Of a stretch of DNA of 64,000 nucleotides, positions 35,628 through 59,050 are shown one piece after another (the first letter of the stretch is position 1; each line of letters begins with the position of its first letter). A model generated the notes under the pieces. That model saw only the letters and a program-made list of their open reading frames with translations, ran no database searches and was not told where the DNA came from. The translations under genes were made by a program, and so were the position numbers. Location of the stretch: positions 109,244,001 to 109,308,000 of the forward strand of contig JANJGN010000007.1 of the NCBI GenBank assembly GCA_026770705.1, written 5' to 3'. The stretch comes from Isurus oxyrinchus (taxonomy: Eukaryota).

Positions 35628-38600
35628 GGCTGGAATTTTCCAGCCCTGTTGGCGTCGGGTAACATGGTAGGCGGGGGAGGAACCATATGGTGAAAAGGTG
35701 AAAAATCTGTTTTAGGTCATCATGAAACCATTTGTGATCATCCACCAGCACCCGTCAATGACGGGCCATATTTCTCTTCACTGGACAACAAAAACATAAT
35801 TTTAATACAAATTCATCTAATTATAAGCCCCATTAGCCAATCATTAAGAAACAACCCCCCACATCAAATTTTCCGCTCACTTCGGTGGGGTTTTAGAATG
35901 TCATGCTTCACAACTGCCTTCAAAAAGCCTGCGCCTGGCGACCTGAACTTCTGCCCGGATGATATCAAGGATGAGGCTCTGTGCATTCACAGGGAGCACA
36001 GGCAAGTCGCTTTGTCCTGGCTGCCTTTCAGTGCATTGCCGGGGCAAGGGTTCCAGTGCGGTCCAGACTGGGGGGGACAGTGTTGTGGGGTGGTGCGAAG
36101 CAGCACAGGCAGACTGCAAGGAAGCCTCAAGCACATGCTGCAAGAATGGGAGGAGAAAGGAAATGGCCATGCACTTGAGAAAGGTTGTCAGAAGTAAGCA
36201 TTCTTTAGCAGCTGAAATTGTTCAGCTGCAGCTCCATTAATATGCTTCGTGTTGAGCCTCTGAATCTTCCCTGCCCACTAAAGCAACATAAAATCATAAA
36301 AGTGAGACCAATTGCTGCGGAAATTTTCTCGCCTCGTGTGCAGACTGCAAGTCAATGTGTGTTTTAGGGAGCAGCAGGGTCATTAGCCGACTAGGAAAGT
36401 TGTACAATCCCCTTGCAAAAAGTGCCATGGCAGAGCCTCTAGTGGAGGCGCTAATATCCCCTTCTAATGCTTCTATTAAGATATGGACCAGCATCCAATT
36501 TGGCCAAAGCTAACAGCACAACCTTGCAATGAGGGTTAGCGGAATACCTGCGCCTGAGTTGAGAGCACAGCATGCAGTCCAATGGCTGAAGCTGCTGCAA
36601 ATTGATCAAGTGGAGTGGGGCGGAGGTGGGTACGGTTTGGTACAGCCATAAAGAGCACTACACACTGGCCACCCAAGTGATGGCCAGCACTCTCCTGCAT
36701 GTGAGAAAGGGCCTTCAGATTTAACAATGACATGCTCTTAGTACTCCCCACCCATGCTAACCCATACATCTCTCTGTTTGATCCTGCATGGTCATGGAGC
36801 CTGGTGATTTAGCAGTATACCTCACTGCTTACAGAAACCAGAGAATAAGAAGCAGAGAGCAGTGGAGACGCCTGGCTTGCCAAAGGAACAAGCACATCCA
36901 CCAAGACAAAAGGGCAGCAGGGTCTGCTGCGCACATACTGGCAGGTGCCCTGGTAGAAACAGGCTCTATCGACAGTGCCTGTCATTCCTGCAGATGACTG
37001 AAAACCAGTGTTGCCGCAGATGGTGCATGTGTTGGGAAATGATCAATCACATATGCCACCTGCTGCAGGATTTGGCATCATGGGGACATGGAGGGCATCC
37101 ACGCTCAGTGGCCATGAAAGTGACAGTGGTGCGCAATTTTACACCAATGGCTTCTTCCAGGCTACACAGGTGCCTCCATGTGCAAGTGTATCCAGGAGGT
37201 CACGAATGCGATCTTCTCAATAGCACAGTACTTTCAGCATTTTGCCCTGCGACAGGAAAACCAGGATGCAAGGGCGCTGGGGTTTGCACCGATCTCAGGT
37301 TTTCCACAGGTGCTGGGTGCTGTCCACCGCACTCATGTGGCACTTTGGTTTTTGTGGCAACATGCTGTCAACTACATCAACAGTAAGTGTTTCCACTCAC
37401 TCAATGCTCAGTCGGTGTGCGACCACCACAAACACATCCTGCAGATCGGCATGCATTTCCCAGGAAGCGTCCAGGACTCCTACATCCTTCGAAGGTCCCA
37501 AACCCTGACACTTTCCAGGTCCACAGAGACTGCAGGGTTAGCTCCTTGACGATAAGGGCTACCCACAGAGGATGTGGCTGATGGTACCCGTTTGGTGGCC
37601 CAGACTGCATAAGAGAGACGGCACAACGATGCTCAAGCCACATCCCTGGTTTTGGTGGAGCAAACCAAAGGCATTCTGAAACTGATGTTCCAGTACCTAT
37701 GCAGGTCTGGTGGAGTAGTGCAATACAGTATCCAGAGGGTGTTGCACACCATCGTTGCTTGCTGTGGACTCTACAAAGTCTGGCGTTGCGAAGGGGATGG
37801 GACCTAGCTGATGAAGAGACGGAGGAGTTACAAATATCCTCCGATGAAGAGGACGCCGAAGGGGCTGATGTTGAAGAGACCCTCAAAAGTGGGGTTTCCC
37901 ATGATGAGGCCATCACAGTGGCCAGACGAGACAGGCGGACAATGGAGGCCCTCTTAGCCGCACATTCGTGTAGGATGGTGATGAGATGCAATGAAGAAAT
38001 TCACACTGTGCATCTATGAATGTTTGGCACCTGAGTGGCTAATGGCACAATGCCCAGGCCCATGTCAGGGAGATGTATCAGAGGCCCTAATAGTCACTAG
38101 ATTCCAGGAGGGTGATGATGACATGCAGCGGGGTCACTCCATAAATCTTCAATTGCCTCTGTGAATGTCTGACTCCTGCCTGGGTGAGGGCAGCTGGCTT
38201 GCACTCTGTGATTAGGATCATATGGAGATGCATCCATGAAACTTTAAATGCACCTGATCGTTTGCCAGCCTTCAGCGCCTGAACGCTTCAGGAGCACAAT
38301 GACACCAGTCACATATGCTGAAGATATGGGGGCCAGCCCCACCTCAAAGATGCTGAGAGCATACTGAAAGAATAATGGAACTCTGTGATGCAGCACTGAC
38401 AAGCATCATGGAGGTTCAGGCATCACAAGCGTGTCAGGTGAGTGTTAAGCCGGATCATCACTTTGGCCTGAAGGTTACACACTGCACAGGGAAGAGGCCT
38501 GGGGTTGAGACACCTGCTTTATCTTGTGCAGGAACCAAGCTTCCACATGTGAGTGACATGAACGAACATGAACACGAACAAGGACCCATAGGCCAGGAAA

Positions 38601-40043
38601 ATTTCCTGGGAGTTTATTTACAATAGTGAGCATTAATGTACCAGACTGTCGAGTATACATTTCTAACCCTGTCGCTAAGCCTTGGTGGCAGCTCCAGCAA
38701 ATATGAGATGCCGAATCCAGAGGCTTCTCATCTAACTCAGACTCAAAAGATTTTCGGCCTCCAGCAGTCCTCTGTGTGCCAGAAACCTGGGAAGCCCCTG
38801 CCGCTGCCTGTTGTGGATCAGACATTGTGATGTGCTTACCAGATTGTGAATACAAGCCTACTCAACAATTAGATCCTACTTTGATGTGTGTCTGGCCTGT
38901 TGGGAAATGTGGGTGAATGCTGTGATGGGTCTTCAATTAGGATGTCATCAGATTCTTCTTCTGACATGCCTTTGGTTTTGATTCTGGGACCTGGGTCATG
39001 GACAGCCCCGGCAGCTTCCCAGATGTGCCTATGAAAGCGAGAAGAGATAATATGTGCAAGGCAGGTGACTGAGGAACAGAATAATTGACTCACAGCATGG
39101 TTGCCTGATGGATGTTACATTGCTGGATCCTCAATTAGTTGTCACTGCCTCCCTCTCTGTCAGCACAGGAAAGGTCTAGATCATCAACGGCCAGCTGGAT
39201 GACTCTATTTTCAAAATCCTCGAGGACCTTGATGTCAGGCATTACTCCACCAGTCTGCGACCTCTCACTTTTGTTGTGTGGCAGCTTGCCCTGCATGAAT
39301 ACAGCTGGAGAAAGTGCAAGCAGGACACCTGTCAGGCCAGATAATAAGGGTGTGTAGCATGTATGGATGGTGAGAAGTGCTATGGACGGGATCAGAACAT
39401 GTTCTGCAGGGCGGATTAAGGTATGTGTGAGGGAATTAACGGTCATGTCCCTTGGACTGACAGTGAGTGAGATCCCTTTGGATGTGTGATGGGTCTGTGA
39501 TTTGAAAGTGATGAGAAGAGTGATTTACCCTAGTGGAACGGAAGTGATCATTGATTCTCTTTCGGCACTGGATAGCTATCCAATTTGGCAGGCACTGGTT
39601 GTGACTACCACTGCCAGAGCCTCCCATGTTGGATTGGTGACCTTGCTTGCTGGTCTTCGCCCATGGCAGGGTTAGAGGACTTATGGGAGGCCTCCATAGT
39701 GTCCAGTAGGCGCCCGACTGTGGTGTCTCTAAATCTGAGGGCAGCATGTTTCCCCCCTTTGGCAACCATGACTTTCTAACAGTTTCTGATGTCTTAGAGA
39801 GAGCAAGCTCTGCGCAGGCGTACTCTTTAAATATGCCGTCCAGATTACTGAAAGCCTGTTGTGATGATGGCCCGGGCAAATCAGAAGCGGCCCGGCGTGT
39901 TTCCAGGAATGTATTATTAACGAGATTGGATGCACCAGGAGTGGGAAAATTTAGCGTGAAAAGCCGTCATTGTAGCCAATGGGTAAAATATCATTTTTCC
40001 CGCCCACTGCCGCACTCTGTGCAGATCTGGGACGATTCCACTC
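35628..40043. mobile_element. Full-length decayed PIF/Harbinger transposon: transposase (+, ~36790-37972) and Myb/SANT gene (-, ~38640-39770), convergent
   Basis: GFPQVLGAVHRTHV, YINSKCFHSLNAQSVCD, FPGSVQDS, DKGYP; QCRKRIND; imperfect TIRs ggctggaattttccag / ctgggacgattccactc. Confidence 0.88.
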
Positions 40044-44939: not shown

Positions 44940-46268
44940 TTGAGTCATACTTAGCACAAAGGAAGATGGTTGTGGTTGATAGAGATCAATCATCTCCGTT
45001 CCAGAGCATCATTGCAGGACTTCTTCAAGGTAGTGTCCTGGGGCCAACCACATTCAGCTGCTTCATCAATGACCTTCTTTCCATTGTAAGGACAAAAATG
45101 GGGATGTTCGCTGATGATTGCACAATGTTCAGCAGCACTAACAACTCATCCAATAAGGAAGCAGTCCATGTCCAAATGCAGCAAGACCTGGAGAATGTCC
45201 GTGCTTCGGCTGAAAAGTTGCAAGCAACATTCGCGCCATGCAAGTGTCTGGCAACGGCCATCTTCAACAAGAGATAATCGAAACTTTTCCCCTTGACATT
45301 CAAAGGTATTACCATCGCTGAATCCAAAAATATCAAAATCCTGTGGGTTACCATTGACCATAAACTGAACTAGACAAGCCATATTAATAATGTTGCAACA
45401 AGAGCAGGTTAGGGGCTAGGAATCCTGCAGCGAGTAACTCACCCTCCTTACTCCCCAAAGTGAGTCCAACTTCTACAAGGCACAAGTCAGGAGTGTGATA
45501 GAATGCTCCCCACTTGCCTGGATGAGTGCAGCTCGAACAATACTAAAGAAGCTTGACACCATCCAGGGCAATGCAGCCCCCTTGATTGGCACTCCATACA
45601 TAAACATTCACTCCCTCCAGCAATGACACACGATGGGGCAATCAAGACTAGAACTTACAAAGAATATAAAAATACAAAACTAAAGGTTCTGTATCTGAAT
45701 ATGCACAGCATTCTTAATGAAGTAAACAATTGATAGCGCACATTGAAGTAGATAAATATGAACTGATAGCCATTACAAGACATGGTTGCACAAGAATTGT
45801 GTCCTGAATACTGAAGGCTCTATGACATGCAGGAAAAATAGGAAACTAGGTAAAGGTGGAAGGGTAGCACTGTTAAACAAGAATGAGATTTTTGCAATAG
45901 TTCGAGATGACCTTGGTGCGCACCATTTACAAGATGCAAGGCAGGAACTTAACGATTCTCCTTAGGCAGTACCTTCCAAACCATCCACCATTATGATATG
46001 GAAGGACAACTCAGCAGGCACATGGGAAGACCACAACTTGAATCTTCCCTCCAAGCCACTCACCATCCTGACTTCGAAATATATCACCATTCCTTCACTA
46101 TTACTGAGCAAAAATCCTGGAAAGCCCTACCTAACAGCACTATGGGTATATCTACATCACATGGGCTGCGGCAATTCAAGGAGGCAGCTCACCACCACCA
46201 TCTCGAGACCAATTAGGAATAGGCCATATATGATGGCCTAGCCAATAATACCTACACCCTATAATGAA
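44940..46268 (+). mobile_element. Second-family LINE RT/3' end with a CR1 APE fragment inserted (~45640-45915)
   Basis: GLLQGSVLGP, MFADDCT; the insert encodes LKVLYLN..LIAIT-like APE start. Confidence 0.85.
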
Positions 46269-48631
46269 TTTTAAAAATGACAGTCTACGGGTAGAATTTT
46301 ATGTCCTCTGTTGGTGGCTTAGCAGGCGCGGATTGGCATGTAATATTCCCCGCATGATCTGTCCACAATTTTACAAGGTTAGGTCAGGCCTAAACCGGAC
46401 AACCCACCTTTGCAGCAATTCACTCTTAAGTGCGCGACTAATGACCACTGATGGGCTATTTCCCACCAAACGTCAATTTTGGGGATAGCAGGAGGGATGT
46501 CAGGCATGTCACCCTACTCTGACCTCAACTGCAAAGGAGAAAATGCCTTCCTCAACAGCCTCCTTTCCACCCGGCCCCACAACAAAGCTTTCCCACTGCT
46601 CCCTCACCATCCTTGCTTCTCCATTAAGACCCCCACCTATCTCACCCCAGTTCTCCAAGCCTCACTTCCCCAGCTAGACATAAGATAGGGTGCCTAACTG
46701 TCCTCTATTTTAAGAGATTGTCCATTATTTTGGATGATTATTCCATGTCCCTAAAGGAACACATTTTGTCCTTTATTACTAGTACAGCCTTTGAGTCACT
46801 GAGCCTGGGGACCACATTTTTGCCTCTCTGTTTTCTTCTTTGAGCATGCACCCATCGCCATCCCCAACCCAGTCGTGTTCTTATGGTTACCAGAAAGCCC
46901 CATTCCAAGTTTCCAGAGTCAAAGAGCACCTTATATTATTTCATAAGTGTTGATCACCATGACATGTAACCACAAGATTTACCTGGTCCTAGATAGGACT
47001 TTGAACCTGGGGACAGCTTTTAATCCCACCCTGGCTACTAATGCTACTAGCACCATTCGGATGCCACAGAAGCCAATCATTTGACTTCCTCCCAAGCGAG
47101 GGTCTGGAAACCCATCTCTAGTCAATTAATACACCTTGGGTGCTCCTCTGGCTATCCGAGGGGCGACCAGCCCTCTCTGGGAACCATTTGTTGGCTGTCT
47201 CACAGGGCCAGGAAATGTGCTAAGGACAGCCATCATAACCATGTCTTTCTCTCTCTCTCCCTTTCTTGCTGCAGGTGGACCATGTCGGGATAATGAATCT
47301 GGTGACCTAACTGTATGCCTGATGGCCTACAGAGATCATGGAAGAAGGAGGTGAGAGTGACTGAGGCACCTGGCTACGCAAAGGCAGGAGCAGAAGCTTC
47401 ATAACGAACGGGCAGCAGGGGCTCCCGCACATGTTGCCAAGGAGCGACAGTGAAACGTGGCTGCTCTGTGCCTAGCAACACCCAGGATCTATAGACGCTG
47501 ACCATCATTCCTGCAGAAGACTGAGCGCCAGTGTCGCCGATGGCTGAGCATGTCTAGGGATCTGGTGGCTCACATCTGCCACTTACTGCAGTACTTGACA
47601 CCAAGAGGACATGGAAGTCATCCACTGCCACATGCTGGCAAAGTGACCGTGGGGCTGAATTTCTCTGCCAGTGGCTACTTTCAGGGCTCCACAAGTGACC
47701 TCTGTGGGACTTCACAATCTGCCACCCAAAAATGCATCCATGAAGATGCATGCCATCTTCTCCATGGCACACAACTTTGTGCATTTAGCCTGGGACCAGG
47801 AAAGCCAGAATACAAGGGCCATTGGATTTGCCCTGATCTTGGGATTCCAACAGGTGCAGTACGCGATTGACTGCATCCATGTGGCACTCAAGTCTCCATC
47901 GCTACACTCAGTGTACTTCATCAACTGCAAGCACTACAACATGCTGAATGTGCAGTCAGTATGCGACGAACAAAAACGCATCCTGCAGTGTGCACATGGT
48001 TTCCAGGGAGTTTGCATGATGCCTTCAACCTGAGTCGCTCGAAGATCCCTGCAGTCTTCTAGGGCCCACACAGGCTGCAGGGTTGTCTCCTTGGGGCCAA
48101 GGGCTTCACGCAGATACCATGGCTGATGACGCCCATACGGCAGCCTTGGACTGCAGCCAAACGACTCTAGAATGAGACTCATGCAGCAGCTCGCAACTAG
48201 GTGGAGCAGACCATCGGGGTGCTGAAGATGATATTCCAGTCCAGTGGAGCCCAGAAATACAGTCCGCAGAGGGTATCACGCATTGTCATCTCCTGCTGTG
48301 CCCATTACAACCTGGCTGTGCAACGAGGTGAGGAGCTAGCTGAGGAGGAGATGGAGGAGCTGCAGGTTTTCTCTGATGAGGAAGTCGTTGACAGGGATGA
48401 GTGCGAGTGGGTCCTCGGTCGTGACGACGACGGGAATGAGGCTGTCTCACTGGATTGATGAAGCAGGAGCTCTCGTGAGGCCCTCAGAGTTGACAGATTT
48501 GTGGAAGATTGAGATGCCATGCAGTGGGGTAACTTCGTAGATACTCACATCACAGTCGTGAACGTTTGACTACAATCTGGCTTATCGCAGCATCAATATC
48601 CTCAGTGGAGGCCCTAATAGTTGTTTGATGA

Positions 48632-48763
48632 AAGGTTACTGGGAAAGGGCAGGAAATTGGAGATGAGGCCGAAATGAGATCACCCATGTTTGTAATGAAT
48701 GGCGGGACTGGCTCGAGGGGCTCAATTGCCTACTCCTGCTCTTAGTTCTTATATTCTTATGTT
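48632..48763 (+). mobile_element. Short CR1 3' tail inside Harbinger
   Basis: gaatggcgggactggctcgagggg...ttcttatattcttatg. Confidence 0.75.
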
Positions 48764-49358
48764 GATCGTAAGAGGATGATGACATCATGCAGTAAGGTAA
48801 CCCCATAGACCTTGACATGGCCTCTGAGAATGTCTGAATCCTGTCTGCCTGTCTGGCCAAGGGCAGCTTTCCTATGCTCTATGATCAAGGCTATCTCAGA
48901 GACGCAGCCTTGAAACTTTAGGTGCATCTGATATTGTGTCCACCTTCAGCATCTCAGCCCTTCAGGAGCATCACTGGTTGCAGACGCTGGTGATATGGGG
49001 ACCAGCCCCACCTTAAAGTAAATGACAACATACAGAGAGTATGAGAGAACTCTGTTGTACCTGCCTACTGCATTCTGGTAGCAATGAACACCACTGCCGA
49101 GGTGCGGGCATCAATGTTGTTTCCAGGGAGATATGAGGCTGATCCATTTGTGGTCTGAAGGCCGCACAGAACACAGCAAAGAGGCCCTGGATTGAAGCAC
49201 TTGCCTTTTATCTTGTGCTGAAATCTTTCACATCTGAGTGACAAGAACACTGCTCATCAGAGCAAGGAGCCAAAGGCAGGGAGACATTCTTGGGAGTTTA
49301 TTCATAATAGTGAATATTAAGTGCAAGTGATTAGCAAGCATGCCTAGGCTGTGCAACT

Positions 49359-49883
49359 GGCGCCATGAGTGGGAATTTCTAGCCGGAGCCGCTGCTTAGC
49401 AACAGCATGACCTCAGCCTTCAAGAATTACATTAACCGTACTGTTGCAGTCATTACAACAGTTGGAAGAATGATTGTGAGAACCCGAAAGGGATTTGACG
49501 TACAATCAACCTAACCCTGGATGAAAGTCATGAGCGAGTACTTAGTTCACAACATGGAGTGGAACATATAGTAATTAGCTTGTACATATTGTGAAGAGAC
49601 AATGTGGCAGCCATTGATGAAATAGATGAAACAGATTCTGCAAGGGATTTGAGACAGAACAGAGCTGAACCTTAGCATTCTGTGGTACACTGAAAGACGA
49701 AAGAACTTTGTGAATGAATTGTCGAGGAGAGTGGAAAACTGATGCTTTCAAGATAGTGCATGGAGGAAATTTGATGTTTAAAGGTTGAAATAATATTTCA
49801 TATTTGACTATTTTAATGTCTTTGTAGCATGAAATATGTACATAAATATTCTTTTAAAACATGCAAAATAAAATTTAATTCTC
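49359..49883 (+). pseudogene. LSM8: Processed (intronless) LSM8 pseudogene: 5' UTR, CDS remnant 49407-49693, 3' UTR with AATAAA at 49867-49872
   Basis: MTSAFKNYINRTVAVITTVGRMIVRTRKGFD/TINLTLDESHERVLSSQHGVEHIVISLYI/..NVAAIDEIDETDSARDLRQNRAEP*HSVVH*, versus recalled vertebrate LSM8 MTSALENYINRTVAVITSDGRMIVGTLKGFDQTINLILDESHERV...; frameshifts and TAG at 49673. Confidence 0.95.
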
Positions 49884-51787
49884 TAGAAGAGGTTGCCGGG
49901 ATTGGTTCGGTGTGGGCTGGAAAACAGGGTCGTTCTCTTGGCTTATGCCGATGATATGCTCCTCATGTTCACTGACCCAGCTGACCTGCGGAGGGTGCAT
50001 GAGTGCCAGGAGACCTGGACTGCCACGTTCTCTGCCACAATCAACTGGGACAAATGTTCTGCATTCCTGGTAGGTCAGTGGCAGGTGGACCTCTTCCCAA
50101 GGACATCAGGCCTTTCACCTGGAGCAAGAGCAGCCTCATCCTGGAATCCTGGCCAGCGAACTAGCAGGAGCTGGAGACCAAAGTCACCACTTTCTTGCAG
50201 CGCTGGACAGGTCTGCTCCAAGGACTGTCTTACTGAGGTGGAGTTCTGGTTATAAACAAGCTGATTGCTGCTGTGTTGTGGTACCGTCTGGTCCCTTTGT
50301 CCCCACCCCCAGACTTTGTCATGGAAATCTAGAGAATGCTTGTCGACTTCTTCAGGGATAAAAGGCTGCACTGGGTCGCTACTAAAGTGCTGAGTCTAAA
50401 GTGCTTAGGGAGGGTGGTCAGGCACTGATGTGCCTGTGTGCCCAGATGGCGACCTTCCACTTTCTGGCCCTCCAGAAGTACCTTTATATCGATCCCTCTT
50501 TGAGGCGGTGCACGCCTGAATTATGACATGCAGCTCCTGTTTGCAGACCTGAGGGGCCTTTCTGGCTCCCTGCAAGCATTGGCCTTCTTTAACCAGGACC
50601 TGATCAAAACCTGGAATATAGTCGCCTCACGACGCATCTCTCTGCCATCAGGAGTAATGGCTATCATCAGAGAGCCTCTGCTCAGGAATTCAACCTTTGA
50701 CTTTTTCAGTGACTGGTGGAAAGGAGGACTGTGGCTGCCAGGGTGACCAGGATTAGGGATATGCTGGGTGGTGGAGGTGTTGGCTGGATGCTTCCAAAGG
50801 AGTTGGTGCCTTTCCCATCTGTGGGCGTCCAACTCCCGTCCAATGCCATTCATGAACTAAGGGTGGTCGTGTTCGGCCTCAATGCCATCCTGGGTCTCGA
50901 GGTGGCGTGGGTGTGTGGTGGTCTTCTGTCTGAGCACACCCCTGTTCGGATGAAATTCCACATTGGACCCAAGCCCTGAATTCGCCCTCGGGAGCTGATG
51001 CCCCGCAACCTGAGTCGCCTCTGTGCCCTTTAGTATGATGCTGAGGGGTTTCCTTTATGAGGTGCTGCTACACCCCCGTCACTCACTTGCCGTCACCTAC
51101 CACCCAGGCACGGCTTGCCATGCCTTGTTGCCACCCAACAGCAGTATTCCATAGTGGGGGGTCCTCTACGAGGGTCACCTCTCACTTTCCATCGGAGTGG
51201 AGGGTGTTGCATGCAACAGTTCCATGCAACAGTAGGTTGGGCCGATTCATGGTCTCCCAAGATACCTGCATTTTTTGGGCCTTGTGTAGTCCGTGGACCA
51301 TGTAAATATAAAGTGCTGTAGGATGCACTCCATTTTCAGTTCCCTGAAAAACGTTTTACTGATGTTTTGTTTGCTCTTCAGTCCCACGCTCCTGACCTAT
51401 GGGCACCCAGTGTGGGAGGGAGGATGACCTCCTCATGAAACTGCTCCTGTGCCTGACCAAGATGGTGATTAACAGGTCTAGGTCACGGGCGATCGAGGAG
51501 GTTGTCTGACCCGACTGTCTGCCCATCTTCTACGTCTATGTCCACAGCTGGGTGTCCCAGGAGAGGAGGCATGCAGTGCCGGCCGGCACTGTCGAGGCCT
51601 CCTATGCCCAGTGGGCACTGTGGGGACCGCAGTGCTTTATCAACCCTGTTAATGGCAATAAGATTTAATGATGTTACGTTTCCACTAAACTTTTGCCTTT
51701 TATTTTTACATTTTCCTTAATTTAAGCGACTGTGTTTATTTTGTCCTTAATTTTGTTAATTTAGTTTATTTGGTTAACTCAAAAGAG
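49884..51787 (+). mobile_element. 5'-truncated Tx1-like (L1 group) LINE, copy 1
   Basis: VVLLAYADD, INWDK, WRVLH, C-terminal Cys/His remnants, T-rich 3' UTR ending caaaagag. Confidence 0.85.
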
Positions 51788-51796
51788 CTCATTCTC

Positions 51797-53782
51797 TGGA
51801 GGAAGTTGCCGTCATTCATTCTGCGCATGCTCAACATCGGGTTGGCCCTCTTGGCTTATGTCGATGACATGCTCCTCATGTTCAAAGACCCAGCTGACCT
51901 GCAAATGATGCACAAGTGCCAGGAGCCCTGTTCTGCCACGTCCTCTACGAGGATCAATCGGGGCAAATGTTCTGGCTCCTGGTTAGTCAGTGGCACTTGG
52001 AGCCCCTACCCGAGAAACTCGGACTTTCACATGGAGCAAGACCACCCACGTGCACTTTGGGGTCCACCACTGCCCTGCTGAGGAATACTGGCCAGTGAAC
52101 TGGCAGGAGCTGGAGAGCAAATGCGGCACTCACCTACAGCACTGTACAGGACTGTCCCGAGTGCTGTTCTTACTGGGGTCGTGTTCTGGTCATAAACCAG
52201 GTGATTGCCACTATGCTGTGTTAGCGTCTGGTCACTTTGACCCCTCCCCTGGACTTTGTCACAAAAATACAGAAAATGCCCTTGACTTCTGGGACAAAAG
52301 GCTGCTCTGGTCTGCTGCTGAGATTTGGAGTCCCCCGCTTAGAGAGGGTGGATAGGCACTGGTGACCCTGCACACTCACATGGCGATTTCCTGCCTTCAG
52401 GCCCTGCAGTGATCCCTTTCCTTCCAGCCCCCTCCGAGATGGTGTGCCCTGGCTAATGTATTTCCTCCTCCAGGTGCATGGAGGAAGAAATGTGCAGCTC
52501 CTGTTTATACAACCGAGTGGCCTTCATGGCTCATTGTAGGCGTTGCCTGTCAATTACCAGAACCTCATTAAAGTCAGGAACATTGTCGCATCATGACACA
52601 GCTCTCCACCCTCAGGGCAAGCAGCTTTTGTCAGAGAGCCGCTCTTCAGGAATCCGTCCGTTTGTCCATTTCATGGCTGGCAGAGAGCAGGGCTTTGACT
52701 GTCGTGGTCACCTAGATCAGGGATGTGCTGTGTGGTGGAGAAGTGAGCTGGATGCTACTGCAGGAATTGGCGCATTTTGTGTTCGTCGACGTCTGGCTCA
52801 TGGTCAATTGCATCCATGACCTTCAGTCAGTCATGCATCCCGGACAATGTTCCTTGGTCCTGAGGTCGTGCAGCTGCATTGTGGTCTTCCGTCTGAGCGT
52901 ACCCCTGTTTGGATGGAATTCCACATGGGCCCCAAGCCCCCAGCCCTCTTTTGGGAGCTAGTGCCCTGCAACCTGTGTTGATTCATGGAAATTCCCTCCA
53001 CAATCTTTTGCAGAGTGTGGACGGGAATCATGTTATGGGCTGCTGCTGCACAGACTTCATTGCCATTCCCTGGCCCGGCACCTGGACGCGCCCTGGCATG
53101 CCTTGTTGCTGTCATGTGACAAAAATCCCCAGTGGGGTGTGCTCTAATGGGGGTGTCCTCCCAGTTTCCATCGGGGGCCTGGGGTGGAGGTTGTTGCACG
53201 CAGCAATCCCATGCAACTGTAGGTAGTGTCGGTTCAAGGACTCCCAAGATACCTGGATCATTTTCGGCCTTGTGGAATCCATGGACCATGATTATATGGG
53301 GTGTTGTAGGCTGCACTCCCTTTTCAGTTTCCTGAAAAACACTTTATTGAAGTTTTCTTTGCACTTCAGCCCCACGTTCCTGATCTGTGGGCATCCGGTG
53401 CGTAGGCAGGCCGGGATGGAGGAGGACATCCTCATGTATCTGCTGTGGGCCTAATGAAGTTGGCCATTAACATGGTCCAGGCAACCAGCGCTCAAGGGGG
53501 TCATCCGACCCAGCTACCTGCCCCTCTTCCGTGGCTCTGTACCTGGCTGGTTATCCTGGAGAGGCAAAACGCAGAGTCTGCCAGCACTGTCATGGCCTTC
53601 CATGTTCAGTGGGCACCGAAGGAACCGAAGTGTTTTATCGACCCTTAATCACATTTTTATTTAATGTTTGTAAGTTTCCTTTAAATTTTTCCCTTTGTTT
53701 TTACAGTCTTCCTAACTTAGGGGCTGTGTTTATTATGTCCCTGATTATGTTAATTAAGTTTAATAGGATGAATTCAAAAGAG
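51797..53782 (+). mobile_element. 5'-truncated Tx1-like LINE, copy 2 (diverged, tandem)
   Basis: LLAYVDD, GWRLLH, ESMDHDYMGCCRL; ends caaaagag. Confidence 0.85.
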
Positions 53783-54449
53783 TTAATTCTCCCTGATTGG
53801 TCTCAGATGCATCTCATTGCTTCTGGAGGTGGTAGTTGGGTTTGTTGCTTTCTCTGGTTCTGGCTGAAGTTTTACTGCTGATCTTAGATTTCCTTCTGTT
53901 TGTTCCTACTGCTATTTTCATGTGGCTGTCACTGACTGCATAGGGATTTCCTTGTGGCTGTTCCTATTGATTTTTAAAAATCTAGCTGTATTCCTCCTGT
54001 TGTCCTGCAAGGCCTGAAACCTGAATAATTGGAGGAGAGAGAGAGAGCGAGAAGATTATGCAAGGCAGGGATGCCGGTAGGCAAGGACTTTTTCATTACA
54101 TCTGGGTTGGATGTCTAGGCTTCCATTTGTCGGGTCTGTGAATCTCGTGGTGCTCTGCAAGGGGAGGAAGAAGACTATTGAAGGTACTCGGGGAGAAGGA
54201 GACATGTATGTGTCCATTTAAGATTTTGCACCACCCCCTCACCATTCCCACCCCAGCCGTGTCCAAGTCCAGGTAGCAAGTGTAGACTGTTGAATAGGGA
54301 TGGACGTGACTTCCATGGGCCACGCAGTACCAGTTGCATAGTGAACACGTCGCCTTCCCCCTACGGGAAGAACAGCTAAGCCCCCACCACCCCTCTCCAC
54401 TCCACTCAGCGACACCCACCTTCTGTGCGCCCATTACGCTTTCCCCTTC

Positions 54450-56565
54450 CTGCCTCTCTGTCTTTCTCCCCTCTCTCTCTCTCCTCCCCTTCTGTCTTTA
54501 TACACCATCAGGATGGAGATGGTAATCCTTTTATCCTCATCTCCCCCTTTATAAAAGGGATTGCTCGGGGTAGCTGTAGATCATCCCCCAACGGCTGCGA
54601 AGAGGTCACCGGTGGCCGTGAACCAGGGCAGCTGTGTAGACAGCGTTAGTAACAGTGGTGGGGTCTGCCAAGAAGACCTATGCAGGACTAGCTACAGCCT
54701 TGGCCTCCACTGCCCCAGCGGGTCCATAACTACTGTTCCTCCTGACCAGGGCCATGGGGGTAAAGGGTTACATACACCCCGAGATGACTGTAGAAATGTG
54801 CGTGAATGCTTTGGCCAGGGTTGTCGACCCCTCGGCGATTGTTGTACCCTCACACGTGTATGGGAAGGTGGTGTACTTCCTGAGGTCTGAGCGAACGGCA
54901 CACCTGGCCGTGGCCAATGGGCCAAACATAGGTGGGACCTCTCTGGCAGTGGATCCTCTTGAGGGCAGGCTGGTCATATATTTGGTTCCCGTTGAGCTCC
55001 TGCTCCCCCAACTTCACCAACTTGGGGAGGTCAGGTCCGGGGTAGTGTTAGTTCTGCTCGAGCTCAGGGAGCAGTCTCCACCACGTGTACTCCTTCCGCT
55101 GACAAGTCTTTTTTCACCTGGCCCGGGAGGAGTGCACAGAGGGGTGGTTTGATCTCAAATTTGAAGGGACTGCCTACAATGTCTTCTGGTCAGCACACAG
55201 TTTACGGTGCCATCCCTGAAAGGCGGTGGGGCATGCCCGTAAGGACAGCACCATCATTAAGGCCACCAGCATCACGCAGGCAGCCGCAGTTCTCACCCTG
55301 GCTCCCCCCTCCTACCGCAGCAGCGCCCCCCCAACAAAGCCATTTTGCCCCACGCAATGGGAGATGCTACTGGCGGCCACTGCCTTCTCGGCTGCTGGCA
55401 AGGCAGGAGGAGAGCCCTCGTGCCACAAGAAAGCACATTTGAAGAGCCGCCACATGGGAGAGCCCCCTGACTCCTCTGACCCCCCAAAAACCACCTTGAA
55501 CCAAGAACCACTAATGAAACTGGCTTGGAGGACAAGAAATCATCCGGCCCCGGCATTGTGTGCATGCGTGCTCCCGGTCTTCTGTGCGCTGCAGAGCCAT
55601 CTGCTGGGCCTGGCGTCATCCATGCATGGGTTCCCAGGTCAGGCAGGAATGGGGTGAGTGCCCCAAGGAGGTGGTCTTGATAAAGAGTGTGGACTTCCCA
55701 ACTCCGGAGCAGGAAGCATCTGGGAGGGCCTGATGAGGCGACAAGGGGCTTGCAGTTGGAGTTCTCCCAAGCCCCTAGCATACCCAGGAAGCGACATCAC
55801 CCTTCAGAGGGGGAGGACTTTCTGACTCGTGAAATTGAATGTGTTGCCTCCGCCGGTTAAGAGGTAGTTACGTCTCCGCCCCAGAAGTCCTTGCTTTGCC
55901 CTCTGGGGTGAGCCCAAACCCCTGTTCTGTTGCTGCAGTCCACTGAAGGCCCCTCGTGGTGTGCTAAGGGTACCGCCCCAGCAGTGGTGCCACACCCCAA
56001 CCCACCCTGTGCCCGCGAAAAGCCATTTGGGCTGCCAGGTGATGAAGAGGGCCTCCCTGCTCAGTCTTAGCCTCTGAGGCTGGGCACTACTGTTCTGGGC
56101 CAGTAACTTGTTCCAGATTCACTTGGCGACCTGGTGCCCGAGGCGCATTGGGTCTTTGAATTGATGCTGCCCTCAGACCCGGAAACCCGAGAGGAGACCA
56201 GAGAGGGCCTCTCTGGCCTTGATGCTGGGGGTGTGATAGAGGCATGGGTAGGGCCAGCTGCCGGCTCCGAATCAGCCCCCACACTCCATTCGGGGGGTGG
56301 GCCAGAAACCCGAGGTGACAACCTAGAAAAGGATGGCGTGTCGATGGCGAGCACCACCGACGATCTTGAGTGCTTGGAGTCAAGTGAGGTGATGGGGGCT
56401 TTGCTGCTCGCTTTTGACGCCCCCGTCTGGGGAGCTTGGGGATTTTTTCTGATTAATCATGGTCGACGCGAAAGGATCCAGGGCCTTGGGCCGGTAGTCT
56501 TCATATCTACTGTTGTTCTTGTCCACCCGCGAGGCACTAAATGCCCCCTAGTTGGACTGGAATCC
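54450..56565 (+). mobile_element. Tx1-like LINE 5' part (ORF1 remnant)
   Basis: GVKGYIHPEMTVEMCVNALARVVDPSAIV..YGKVVYFL..VDPLE and a decayed zinc knuckle (CH..GHARKD). Confidence 0.75.
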
Positions 56566-58714
56566 TGAGGTCCCCAGTAGGAGTGACTTCCTGGACCCAA
56601 GTCTTCATGGCAGCCACCATCCTGCCAGCATTGACACCGGTGCATTGCAATGCTGGCCTATCACTTCAGCCTGAAGACTGAGTGACTCCTCCATCATGCC
56701 TTGCAATCTGAGAAGAGCAGCAGACATCGCTTCCTGTTGTTCCCTAGCTTCCCTTTGCAGATCCAGGAACTGTGACATAACCGAGTCCAGTGACTTGTCA
56801 CCTGGCCCGTTCTGGCCTCAAGCAATCCTCCAAGTGCGGAAGATCTGGGAAGTCCCTGCATCCACCGGCTGTGGATCAGTAATGGTGATGTGCTCACCAG
56901 ATTGTGACATGGAGGCGATTCTAAAGCTAGATGCCACCGAGCTGTGTCTGTGCGCTGCTGGAGGGTGTAGGTGAGCACTGTGATGGGTCTTCAGCTGCTT
57001 CCTAGATGTGCCTGCGGAATCAAGGGGAAATAATTAGTGCATGGAAGTGGCCTGTGAAAGAGGAAAGATTAAGAATAGCATGGGTGTCTGATGAATGTTG
57101 CACTGCTGTATCCTCACTTAGTAGAGCAGTGTCGACCTCACCGTCAGCACAGGATCAGTCACAGGCATCACCGGCCAGCTGGATGGCTCTGTTTTCACAT
57201 TCTGTGAGAAATTTGAATTCCAGCATCCCCCCACCTGCCTGCGACTTTCCCCTCCTGTTGTGAGTCAGTTTGTCCTACATAAAGAGATATGAGTACAGTA
57301 TATCAAGACTACTACCGGGTAAGATTGTAAGTATGCCTGGCCTGTGTGGTCGGTGACGGGCCCCATGGACAGGATGAGGAAAATGGTGGCGTGTATGAAA
57401 GAGTGAATGGTGATGCCCTTTGCACTGGTAGTAAGTGAGGGCCTGTGTGTGTGTGATGGGCTTGTGAGTGAGAGAGTTGGGAGGGCTGAAAAAAGTGAAT
57501 TACCCTCGTGAAACGGAGGAGATCATTGATCCTTTTGTAGCACTGGATGACTGTCCTCCTCTGCAGGGCGTTCACGCTCACCACTGCTGCCACCACCTCC
57601 GAAACCAGATTGGTGACTTTGCTACCATCTTGCGGCCAGAGCGGGGGCAGAGCACATCCTGGGAGGCTTTCACGGCAACGAGCAGTCACTTGAGGGACCC
57701 GTCGTTGAAGTGGAAGGCCTGCACCCTTTTTTCCAGTTGCTGGCCATGTCTGACAGGCAGTGGAGGTGAGCTGGTGGCGATGAGAACTTTGCTGGCGCCT
57801 GCCTTTCAAAGATGGCGGCTGGGCTGATGACGAGCGGGCGCGTGAGAGCTCGCCTGCGACCTAAATAACCGTGTCTCGCTGGAGCAAATATATAATGAGG
57901 AAAATACGGTGTGAAATCCCGCCACTTTCATCAACGAGTAGGACTTCATTTAACCGGCCCGCTTCCGCATAAGTGCAATTCTGGGAAAATGCAGCCCAAT
58001 GTATCTCACTGAGTGGCAAATGAAATAGTGTGATGGGGACCCATGCAGGAAAGGAAATTTTCAATCTCAATCACGTATTTGTGCTTTATTATTTATCATC
58101 AACTATAACATATCTCAGCATTTCCAGGCTCCAGAGTGGTTACGAAAACAGATCGGGTCCATCTGTCGATTTCTATAGGCTGAGCCCATTTTACAAATTG
58201 CGTGGCTATGCACATCAACTGTGATGGCACTCAGGGAGCAATAGATTTACTGCTGAAAATTCCACCACGAGGATGAGGTAACAGATGCTGTGGCATCAGA
58301 TAGAATGGAAAATAGTGATTAAAACAATCGTGCTTAAAGTAGGTTTTCATCAAGTATCTTTCAGAATTGAAACTGGCTTTCCTTTGTGCATAAATTATAG
58401 GTTGATAAATTATTCATTGACTTTTCGTACCAGGTCAACATCCCAAAATAACAAGTAGGAAAAGCATCTGAGGGACTATTTAATGCAGCCAATAAACTGG
58501 TGTGAGTTCTTGTGCTGTACTTTGTCATTTACACATTTTTAAAACAAAGATGTTAGTTATATTTTATTATATTTTAGCTCAATTACCGTAACAGTATCAG
58601 ACAAAAGAACATATTTGGAACAGAGTCCTTCAATAACAAATCATATTTGGTGCAGGATAACAGTATAAATAACTTACTACTGTCAATCACTGGAATATGA
58701 AATTAATCAAATAG

Positions 58715-59050
58715 AATCATAGAAAATTTACAGTAGGGCAGTTGGCCCGTTTTCTCTGTGTCAGTAGATGAACAGCTACCTAGCGTAGTCTCGTCTTCCT
58801 GCACTTGTTCTGTAGTCCTGCAGGTCATAGCTCTTGAAGTAGACATGCAAATGCTTTTTAAATATGCTGAAGGTTTCTGCTTCTAACACTCTATCAGGCA
58901 GGGTGTTCCAGGTCCCTAACAACCTCCAAGTTATAAAATGATTCCTGACCTCTCTCCTAATCGTTCCACGAATTATTTTACATCCATGTTCCCTGGTTTT
59001 CGGTCCCTTTGCTAAGGTAAATAGGTTGTCCCTATTTACTCCAACTAGGT
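58715..59050 (-). mobile_element. CR1 3' fragment
   Basis: atagaatcatagaaa tail; similar to 1355-1640. Confidence 0.7.

Follow-up and report, generated by a model that had tools for sequence, protein, structure and literature searches.

An LSM8 processed pseudogene at the insertion point of a Tx1-clade LINE within Harbinger transposons of a shark

An LSM8 processed pseudogene inside a Harbinger transposon

The DNA analysed here, referred to as the window, is a stretch of 64,000 nucleotides on contig C7 of the 5-Gb genome of Isurus oxyrinchus. As shown in Table 1, it carries an LSM8 processed pseudogene inside a decayed Harbinger transposon, followed on the same strand by three copies of a Tx1-like LINE, namely two 3′ fragments with a common 5′ end and then the 5′ part of a third. 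The initial annotation of the sequence had described one 5′-truncated Tx1-like element with an RT region on the LSM8 strand; its strand, truncation, and RT fragment were borne out (RVT_1, E = 1.4e-7; 52% identity over 71 aa between the window RT frame and Xenopus Tx1 ORF2), but the element proved to be three copies instead of one. The Harbinger host named in that annotation was confirmed by a DDE_Tnp_4 match above the cut-off in the transposase frame (E = 3.2e-6). Nucleotides 49150–49358 were 87–89% identical to 39 other best genomic matches, a convergent second Harbinger frame was present, and 3,788 Harbinger candidates were counted genome-wide. The one window frame scanned gave no Pfam match to Myb/SANT, and no convincing terminal inverted repeat was found between 46000–47400 and 57000–59000. 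A second, more distant Harbinger (about 66% identical) occupies 36960–39650 of the window and has no insertion at the corresponding position.

Table 1. Features of the LSM8 locus in window coordinates
Feature	Position	Strand	Remarks
Left Harbinger part: decayed transposase and intergenic region	47148..49358	+	colinear with the duplicate locus
Left target half in Harbinger, ending GTGCAACT	49343..49358	+	final CT also fits LSM8 5′ UTR
LSM8 processed pseudogene: partial 5′ UTR, broken CDS (49407–49693), 3′ UTR	49359..49875	+	clear homology up to 49863
Target motif copy 1, TAATTCTC(T)	49876..49884	+	target-site duplication of the Tx1 stack; same in duplicate
Tx1 copy a: 5′-truncated within RT, complete 3′ end (CAAAAGAG)	49885..51787	+	
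Target motif copy 2, decayed	51789..51797	+	
Tx1 copy b: 5′ truncation point as in a	51798..53783	+	74% identical to a
Target motif copy 3, TAATTCTCC	53784..53792	+	
Tx1 copy c: full-length 5′ end, 5′ UTR, ORF1 remnant	53793..56566	+	3′ part deleted
Right Harbinger part, second ORF on minus strand	56567..57900	-	resumes about 440–450 bp right of target

The LSM8 copy was intronless, as initially annotated. Nucleotides 49359–49863 aligned with the four joined exons of a gene on contig C20 (exon identities of 81, 93, 88, and 84%), and all three introns had been precisely lost, which classes the copy as a processed pseudogene. Its coding sequence carries a frameshift. Both UTRs had been reported; the 3′ UTR is present, but the 5′ UTR is only partial, the copy being truncated inside it, and both the parent and a sister retrocopy (L002) extend about 100 nt further 5′. 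This second LSM8 retrocopy (L002:1400–2030) is younger, retains more of the 5′ UTR, and has kept a frame of about 95 codons nearly intact; it lies off the Harbinger target and matched LSm8 in the PDB with E = 1.8e-43. The first intron of the parent gene (L015, C20:33436962) starts with GTATCCTG, which resembles a minor-spliceosome 5′ splice site.

No poly(A) tail was found on the LSM8 copy in the window, in accordance with the earlier description, or in a duplicate locus on the same contig, so the copy is of the tailless type. No target-site duplication flanks it either; the left junction is blunt with a 2-nt microhomology, and the target motif lies on the 3′ side only. The AATAAA at 49867–49872, formerly read as the LSM8 signal, does not align with the AATAAA of the parent, which lies about 30 nt beyond the end of clear homology, and it is missing from the duplicate locus; that reading was therefore given up. 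The 14 nt preceding the window junction matched the parent just past its true AATAAA at 12 of 14 positions (shuffle p = 0.005), suggesting a deletion of about 36 nt in a copy that had reached the mRNA end. Nucleotides 49863–49876 are probably the last nucleotides of the mRNA, remaining after that deletion took the real AATAAA. The same stretch of the duplicate locus fitted the mRNA end at 9 of 15 positions (p = 0.95, not significant) and a Tx1 tail slightly better (10 of 15). RNA-like contigs from four runs were spliced at the exon 3/4 joint and stopped at L003 positions 1444, 1449, 1467, and 1483, the parent AATAAA being at L003 1468–1473; two of the four stopped 19 and 24 nt past this signal and one within 3 nt of the inferred copy end. 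These stops agree with a copy reaching the mRNA end, although contigs cannot show an end and give only a weak hint.

LSM8 had been described as joined directly to the LINE; however, 9 nt of Harbinger target sequence separate the two. Nor does the LSM8 3′ UTR continue after 53791, a possibility raised in the initial annotation: Tx1 5′ UTR is found there instead, and 1 kb of sequence downstream of the parent gave no above-chance match in 49880–58000.

Most of the window exists in old segmental duplicates, which are about 77–82% identical outside GC-rich repeats. One of them, at C7:108.69–108.75 Mb, is colinear with the window region at 73–83% identity. It contains this same Harbinger together with the LSM8 3′ part and Tx1 copies a–c, and the colinear tract starts about 10 kb before the left edge of the window and continues for about 5 kb past its right edge. 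By its sequence, this duplicate locus backs the LSM8–Tx1 junction. A Harbinger carrying LSM8 as cargo was considered and rejected, because the second copy lies inside a colinear duplicate that reaches far beyond the transposon. A third, partial segmental copy was seen at C7 109.65 Mb (109.649–109.664 Mb), without LSM8 in the 30 kb covered there.

Ages were expressed as non-CpG K2P distances, calculated against family majorities for Tx1 and Harbinger and against the parent for LSM8. LSM8 differed from its parent by 0.18 in both duplicates, a value to which change in the parent itself and the last 20 nt, which do not align, also contribute, and L002 differed from the parent by 0.115. The values for the two duplicates were 0.144 and 0.142 for Tx1 copy a and 0.192 and 0.148 for copy b; those for Harbinger were 0.13–0.16, and the duplicates differed from each other by 0.23–0.26. 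All parts thus appear to have arrived shortly before the segmental duplication, and the ages give no order among them, the comparison of LSM8 with Tx1 (0.18 versus 0.14) being one between different references. Divergence ages, initially suggested as a test between models, did not separate them (0.18 for the retrocopy, 0.14–0.19 for copies a and b, and the Harbinger range above).

The Harbinger target of a Tx1-clade LINE

In uninterrupted Harbinger copies, GTGCAACT was followed by AATTCTCC in 17 of 29 and by a variant in the others. Sixteen of 29 other Tx1 3′ ends ran straight into the Harbinger right flank, and three more carried the motif but failed the automatic test, the remainder being off target. 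Furthermore, at least 16 full-length Tx1 5′ ends joined the same Harbinger left flank, and the motif was found on both sides of truncated Tx1 copies such as L050, L055, and L074. The 3′ ends, 5′ ends, and two-sided motifs together indicated that TAATTCTC is a Harbinger target duplicated by Tx1. The 5′ end of the Tx1 family itself was TTACAGCTTCC in five loci and not TAATTCTCC, indicating that the motif is genomic. A later Tx1 insertion with ttaattctc as its target-site duplication had been among the original proposals; it was right as to the form of the duplication but not as to its origin, the motif deriving from Harbinger and not from the retrocopy.

The convergent second Harbinger frame has its stop codon at the nick; 22 of 29 copies (L110–L138) end this frame there, and a minus-strand AATAAA lies about 60 nt past the stop. 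Both the Tx1 and the LSM8 junctions recreate the stop codon, which may spare the Harbinger host gene.

The LINE is assigned to the Tx1 clade by protein similarity: ORF2 of a younger copy was 50% identical to Xenopus Tx1 ORF2 over 943 aligned aa, and the RT region was 61% identical over 421 aa to the same protein, the only named element among the 120 matches listed. Younger copies have two ORFs, with RVT_1 at E = 7e-35 and, both under the curated cut-off, zf-CCHC in ORF1 (E = 0.005) and zf-RVT at the C terminus of ORF2 (E = 0.0006). The AP-type endonuclease domain (PF03372) is listed for many homologues, and the frame scanned started past most of that domain. Copies of a younger Tx1 subfamily (97–100% identical) have a different 3′ end and are located inside the head of a tRNA-type SINE instead of at the Harbinger nick (L009:~560, L158, L159, and L171); this subfamily possibly switched its target from Harbinger to the partner SINE.

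Two explanations for the common 5′ end of copies a and b were rejected. A late tandem duplication was discarded on finding 7–17 shared derived sites versus 8–11 expected and no joint clade; other tandem Tx1 3′ ends shared 0–4 sites, and unrelated pairs a median of 2. A non-autonomous Tx1 family with a fixed 5′ end was discarded because 29 of 29 other top matches extend upstream of the truncation point. A common truncation point occurred in three of the six tandem loci with readable 5′ junctions (L050, L065, and L178). As in the window (49885–53783), the tandem Tx1 3′ fragments of these loci are cut off at one 5′ position and have no later mutations in common. Given the lack of a shared-mutation excess in tandem copies, the doubling would have happened at about the time of insertion. 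At the far side of the stack, the Harbinger sequence picks up again about 440 bp to the right of where the insertions lie, indicating that the right end of the stack was deleted; the deletion of the 3′ part of copy c also took about 440 bp of Harbinger, and the outer duplication is therefore unreadable.

LSM8 lies in this target to the base. Its first base directly follows GTGCAACT and its end abuts TAATTCTC at 49876, exactly the Tx1 insertion point. In both duplicates the motif separates LSM8 from a, a from b, and b from c, and it was absent at the LSM8 5′ end (none at 49358). By our own estimate, which assumed 40,000 target sites, ten times the number of Harbinger candidates, a random insertion would fall within 2 bp of the point in this orientation with a probability of about 2e-5. 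The coincidence of an ordinary retrocopy landing in a Harbinger and a Tx1 later using its customary site next door would be favoured by the abundance of retrocopies (about 16 of 29 Sm/LSm matches) and by Harbinger copies numbering in the thousands; set against the two LSM8 junctions at the nick to the base, at about 2e-5 per insertion or lower, and five more RNA-gene copies at the same place, it is extremely improbable and already largely refuted.

Cellular RNA copies at the nick

Inserts at the target were collected genome-wide with two kinds of exact junction pattern, built to exclude empty sites and to enrich foreign inserts, so that the counts give no rate. The left-junction matches (n = 39) comprised 19 SINE, 10 Tx1, eight empty sites or small deletions, one histone H2A, and one LTR-like insert. 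The right-junction matches (n = 29), sorted by eye, comprised 14 mutated empty sites, four Tx1, four rearranged loci, one that was not Harbinger, one unassigned, two U3, one histone H1, one antisense CR1-like fragment, and one copy of a unique C16 stretch; a strict right-junction pattern gave zero matches.

The U2 fragment at the target (L087; Rfam, 60.7 bits) turned up among Tx1 5′ ends. Both U3 copies are 5′ fragments (L198 and L210), with an Rfam E of 0.001 for L210, to which L198 is 88% identical. Of the three passengers that adjoin Tx1 (LSM8, U2, and H2A), only the H2A copy (L151) was found without selecting for Tx1. The H1 copy (L187) is a 119-nt 3′ fragment whose source gene is 96% identical (Linker_histone, E = 3e-16); it shares its 15-bp duplication with Tx1 copies L050 and L074, its 3′ end falls at a gene-encoded A tract, and the histone stem-loop of the source lies about 20 nt beyond the break. 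As histone genes have no introns, the RNA origin of the H2A and H1 copies is argued from their boundaries. Also seen was an H1-like gene (L249:717–1589) that comprises 290 codons, encodes an arginine-rich tail, and carries a histone 3′ stem-loop; a decayed relative lies on C6 (L250).

All six RNA-gene copies (LSM8, H2A, H1, U2, U3, and U3) lie in the Tx1 orientation. LSM8, U2, and H2A are each followed by Tx1, in the latter two cases by a full-length Tx1 5′ end, whereas the two U3 copies and H1 are bordered by Harbinger at either end, with no Tx1 beside them, indicating that no Tx1 body is needed. At the 3′ end, a TAA overlap with the target was found for U2 and, if the remnant is the mRNA end, for LSM8; the combination of a 3′ end complementary to the target and no tail is that of a tailless retropseudogene. 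The target variants holding U3, ACATCTTC and ACTTCTTC, are unlike the L1 consensus TT/AAAA given in PMC5322556.

Not every insert at the nick came from an RNA gene. L205, at the same base, is a 310-nt copy of a unique non-coding C16 stretch (90% identical), and the antisense CR1-like fragment (L202) and the LTR-like insert (L156) lie at or beside the site, showing that part of the inserts there was not made by Tx1. L156, which lies beside the nick, is 775 bp long, has TG...CA ends, and shows an imperfect duplication of 5 bp; it resembles a solo LTR. A SINE of about 130 nt with a Tx1-like end (GAAAGAGT) occupies the same nick, often in tandem, and accounts for the 19 SINE matches (L145, L153, L157–159, L161, L163, L164, L166–168, L171, L172, L175–178, L180, and L181); in our reading it is tRNA-type, and it gave no Rfam match. 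A U5 snRNA match (L053:3096–3212; Rfam, 57.5 bits) is located upstream of an on-target Tx1 3′ end, at a distance of about 1.3 kb.

Routes of retroposition

The occurrence of LSM8 and several other cellular RNA copies at the Tx1 insertion base suggests that the Tx1 enzyme likely wrote host RNAs into its own target. The loci themselves show the position, the orientation, where the motif lies, and the stand-alone passengers; from these we infer the identity of the enzyme and the priming. We consider it quite probable that a site-specific Tx1 copied cellular RNAs, including LSM8, in trans into its target, apart from the insertions of copies a–c. The proposal, made when the locus was first annotated, that Tx1 machinery retroposed an mRNA is thereby supported, although on different evidence: LSM8 shares the Tx1 insertion point with no fewer than five other copies of cellular RNAs. 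Tx1 ORF2 would nick the bottom strand at CT^A of the target, and the freed 3′ end would anneal to a short stretch of a cellular RNA, either U-A-A or an A tract, allowing reverse transcription without poly(A). The cDNA would then be joined at the left flank, in the case of LSM8 with no duplication and with the 2-nt microhomology. Because the target motif survives each insertion, the site is reused, and Tx1 copies, the partner tRNA-type SINE, and cellular RNAs would pile up with one motif between neighbours. Deletion of the right end of the stack and segmental duplication of the region would have come later.

What speaks against copying in trans is that LSM8 has no 5′ duplication and that Tx1 behind LSM8, U2, and H2A would also be expected from a jump within a single event. 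U6/L1 and mRNA/L1 chimeras resemble this locus in having a cellular RNA copy 5′ of a same-strand LINE, but one target duplication surrounds the composite in those chimeras (10.1101/2025.02.02.635956); here the target sits between LSM8 and copy a and not around them, and a U6/L1-type template-switch chimera with the adjacent truncated Tx1, the first option of the initial annotation, accordingly found no support. A different single event would have the Tx1 RT copy its own RNA, either a 15–20 nt tail or the full-length copy c, and jump to the LSM8 mRNA, with a and b inserted between them later. Tx1 tails of 10–40 nt do occur at the target (L122, L128, L149, and L152), the junction of the duplicate is Tx1-tail-like at 10 of 15 positions with TTGA common to the UTR, the U2 and H2A copies precede full-length Tx1 5′ ends, and the ages overlap; moreover, Tx1-Mar families with U1/U2 heads have been published (PMC4494074). 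This event is nevertheless unlikely, given the target motif between the parts, which is genomic as judged from the TTACAGCTTCC ends of the five Tx1 loci, and the stand-alone U3 and H1 copies. The fit of the window junction to the mRNA end (p = 0.005) and, as a weak hint, the RNA-like contig stop within 3 nt also argue against it.

Comparable systems are described, as far as the accessible text of the sources goes. Tx1-9_AMi, an alligator Tx1 inserted in Harbingers (Kojima 2015, PMC4494074), is likewise a Tx1-clade LINE preferring one Harbinger position, but its site lies about 300 bp from the Harbinger 5′ end, whereas the one reported here is internal, in the stop codon of the second ORF; no cellular-RNA copies at the Tx1-9_AMi target are described in the text consulted. 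The same paper argues from shared targets that Tx1-Mar mobilises SINEU-1/2/3 in Mariner-N4_AMi. Shared target as evidence for action in trans, tandem insertions sandwiching the target duplication, and U1/U2-derived heads are common to that system and ours; its passengers are amplified SINE families (PMC4494074), whereas ours, next to a SINE of tRNA type, include single copies derived from a spliced mRNA, from histone mRNAs, and from U3. Xenopus Tx1L (UniRef 'Transposon TX1 uncharacterized 149 kDa protein', P0025), the source of the ORF2 compared above, also targets a DNA transposon, Tx1D (PMC4494074), although the host transposon differs. Tailless retropseudogenes (Noll et al. 2015, PMC5322556) are attributed to relaxed L1 acting at TT/AAAA-like sites and have been reported, among vertebrates, only in therians and the anole; they share with our copies the lack of poly(A), the 3′ end complementary to the target, and the sources (U2, snoRNAs, histone and other mRNAs), but the copies described here lie at one fixed, non-L1-like site, in a shark. 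A 2026 preprint (10.64898/2026.06.26.734816) concludes from genome content that CR1 or Tx1 sustain retroduplication in non-mammals, and further background is available in PMC3747384, PMC4640811, and PMC2912911.

Site-specific Tx1, transposon targets, and passengers moved in trans are thus each already known singly. In the openly accessible literature, we came across no description of mRNA copies at the target of a sequence-specific Tx1. The evidence leans, with somewhat less assurance than for copying in trans itself, toward a shark site-specific Tx1 with relaxed, L1-like template choice, which would place spliced mRNAs, histone mRNAs, snRNAs, and snoRNAs without poly(A) into a Harbinger stop codon that is left intact. 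The LINE source of non-mammalian processed pseudogenes has so far been argued for largely on correlative grounds. An element with a fixed site leaves a signature, so that a retrocopied mRNA lying precisely at its nick can be assigned to a single enzyme. Should this reading hold, Tx1 can use foreign RNA, including RNA without poly(A), and cartilaginous fishes also have tailless retrocopies. The target sites, numbering in the thousands, would then form a natural log assigning retrocopies to one named enzyme, and the Tx1 protein would become a candidate for directing arbitrary RNAs to a given site.

The route through the Tx1 target is a minority route for retrocopies in this genome. A search for the Sm/LSm family, which missed the decayed copy of the window itself, returned 29 matches, about 16 of them intronless by eye and several with A tails, and none of these approximately 16 had a Harbinger or Tx1 target within 1.5 kb. 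The genome-wide association of retrocopies with Tx1, for which a test had been suggested at the outset, was thus not seen in this family (0 of about 16 at the target), and a general need of retrocopies for Tx1 would be too strong a claim. The A-tailed copies away from the target fit a reading in which Tx1 supplied only the cut, its endonuclease opening a nick or break at which LSM8 was then inserted by an L1-type element or by break repair using a cDNA; the antisense CR1-like fragment and the 310-nt C16 copy at the same base, and the absence of a duplication at LSM8 and U3, point the same way. We judge this very unlikely, since all six RNA-gene copies lie in the sense predicted by target-primed synthesis, where break repair would presumably give both orientations, and since H1 has a duplication of Tx1 length. 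Among the Sm/LSm matches, at least five retrocopies (L213, L215, L217, L224, and L235), several with A tails, derive from one Sm-family mRNA, which we read as SmG.
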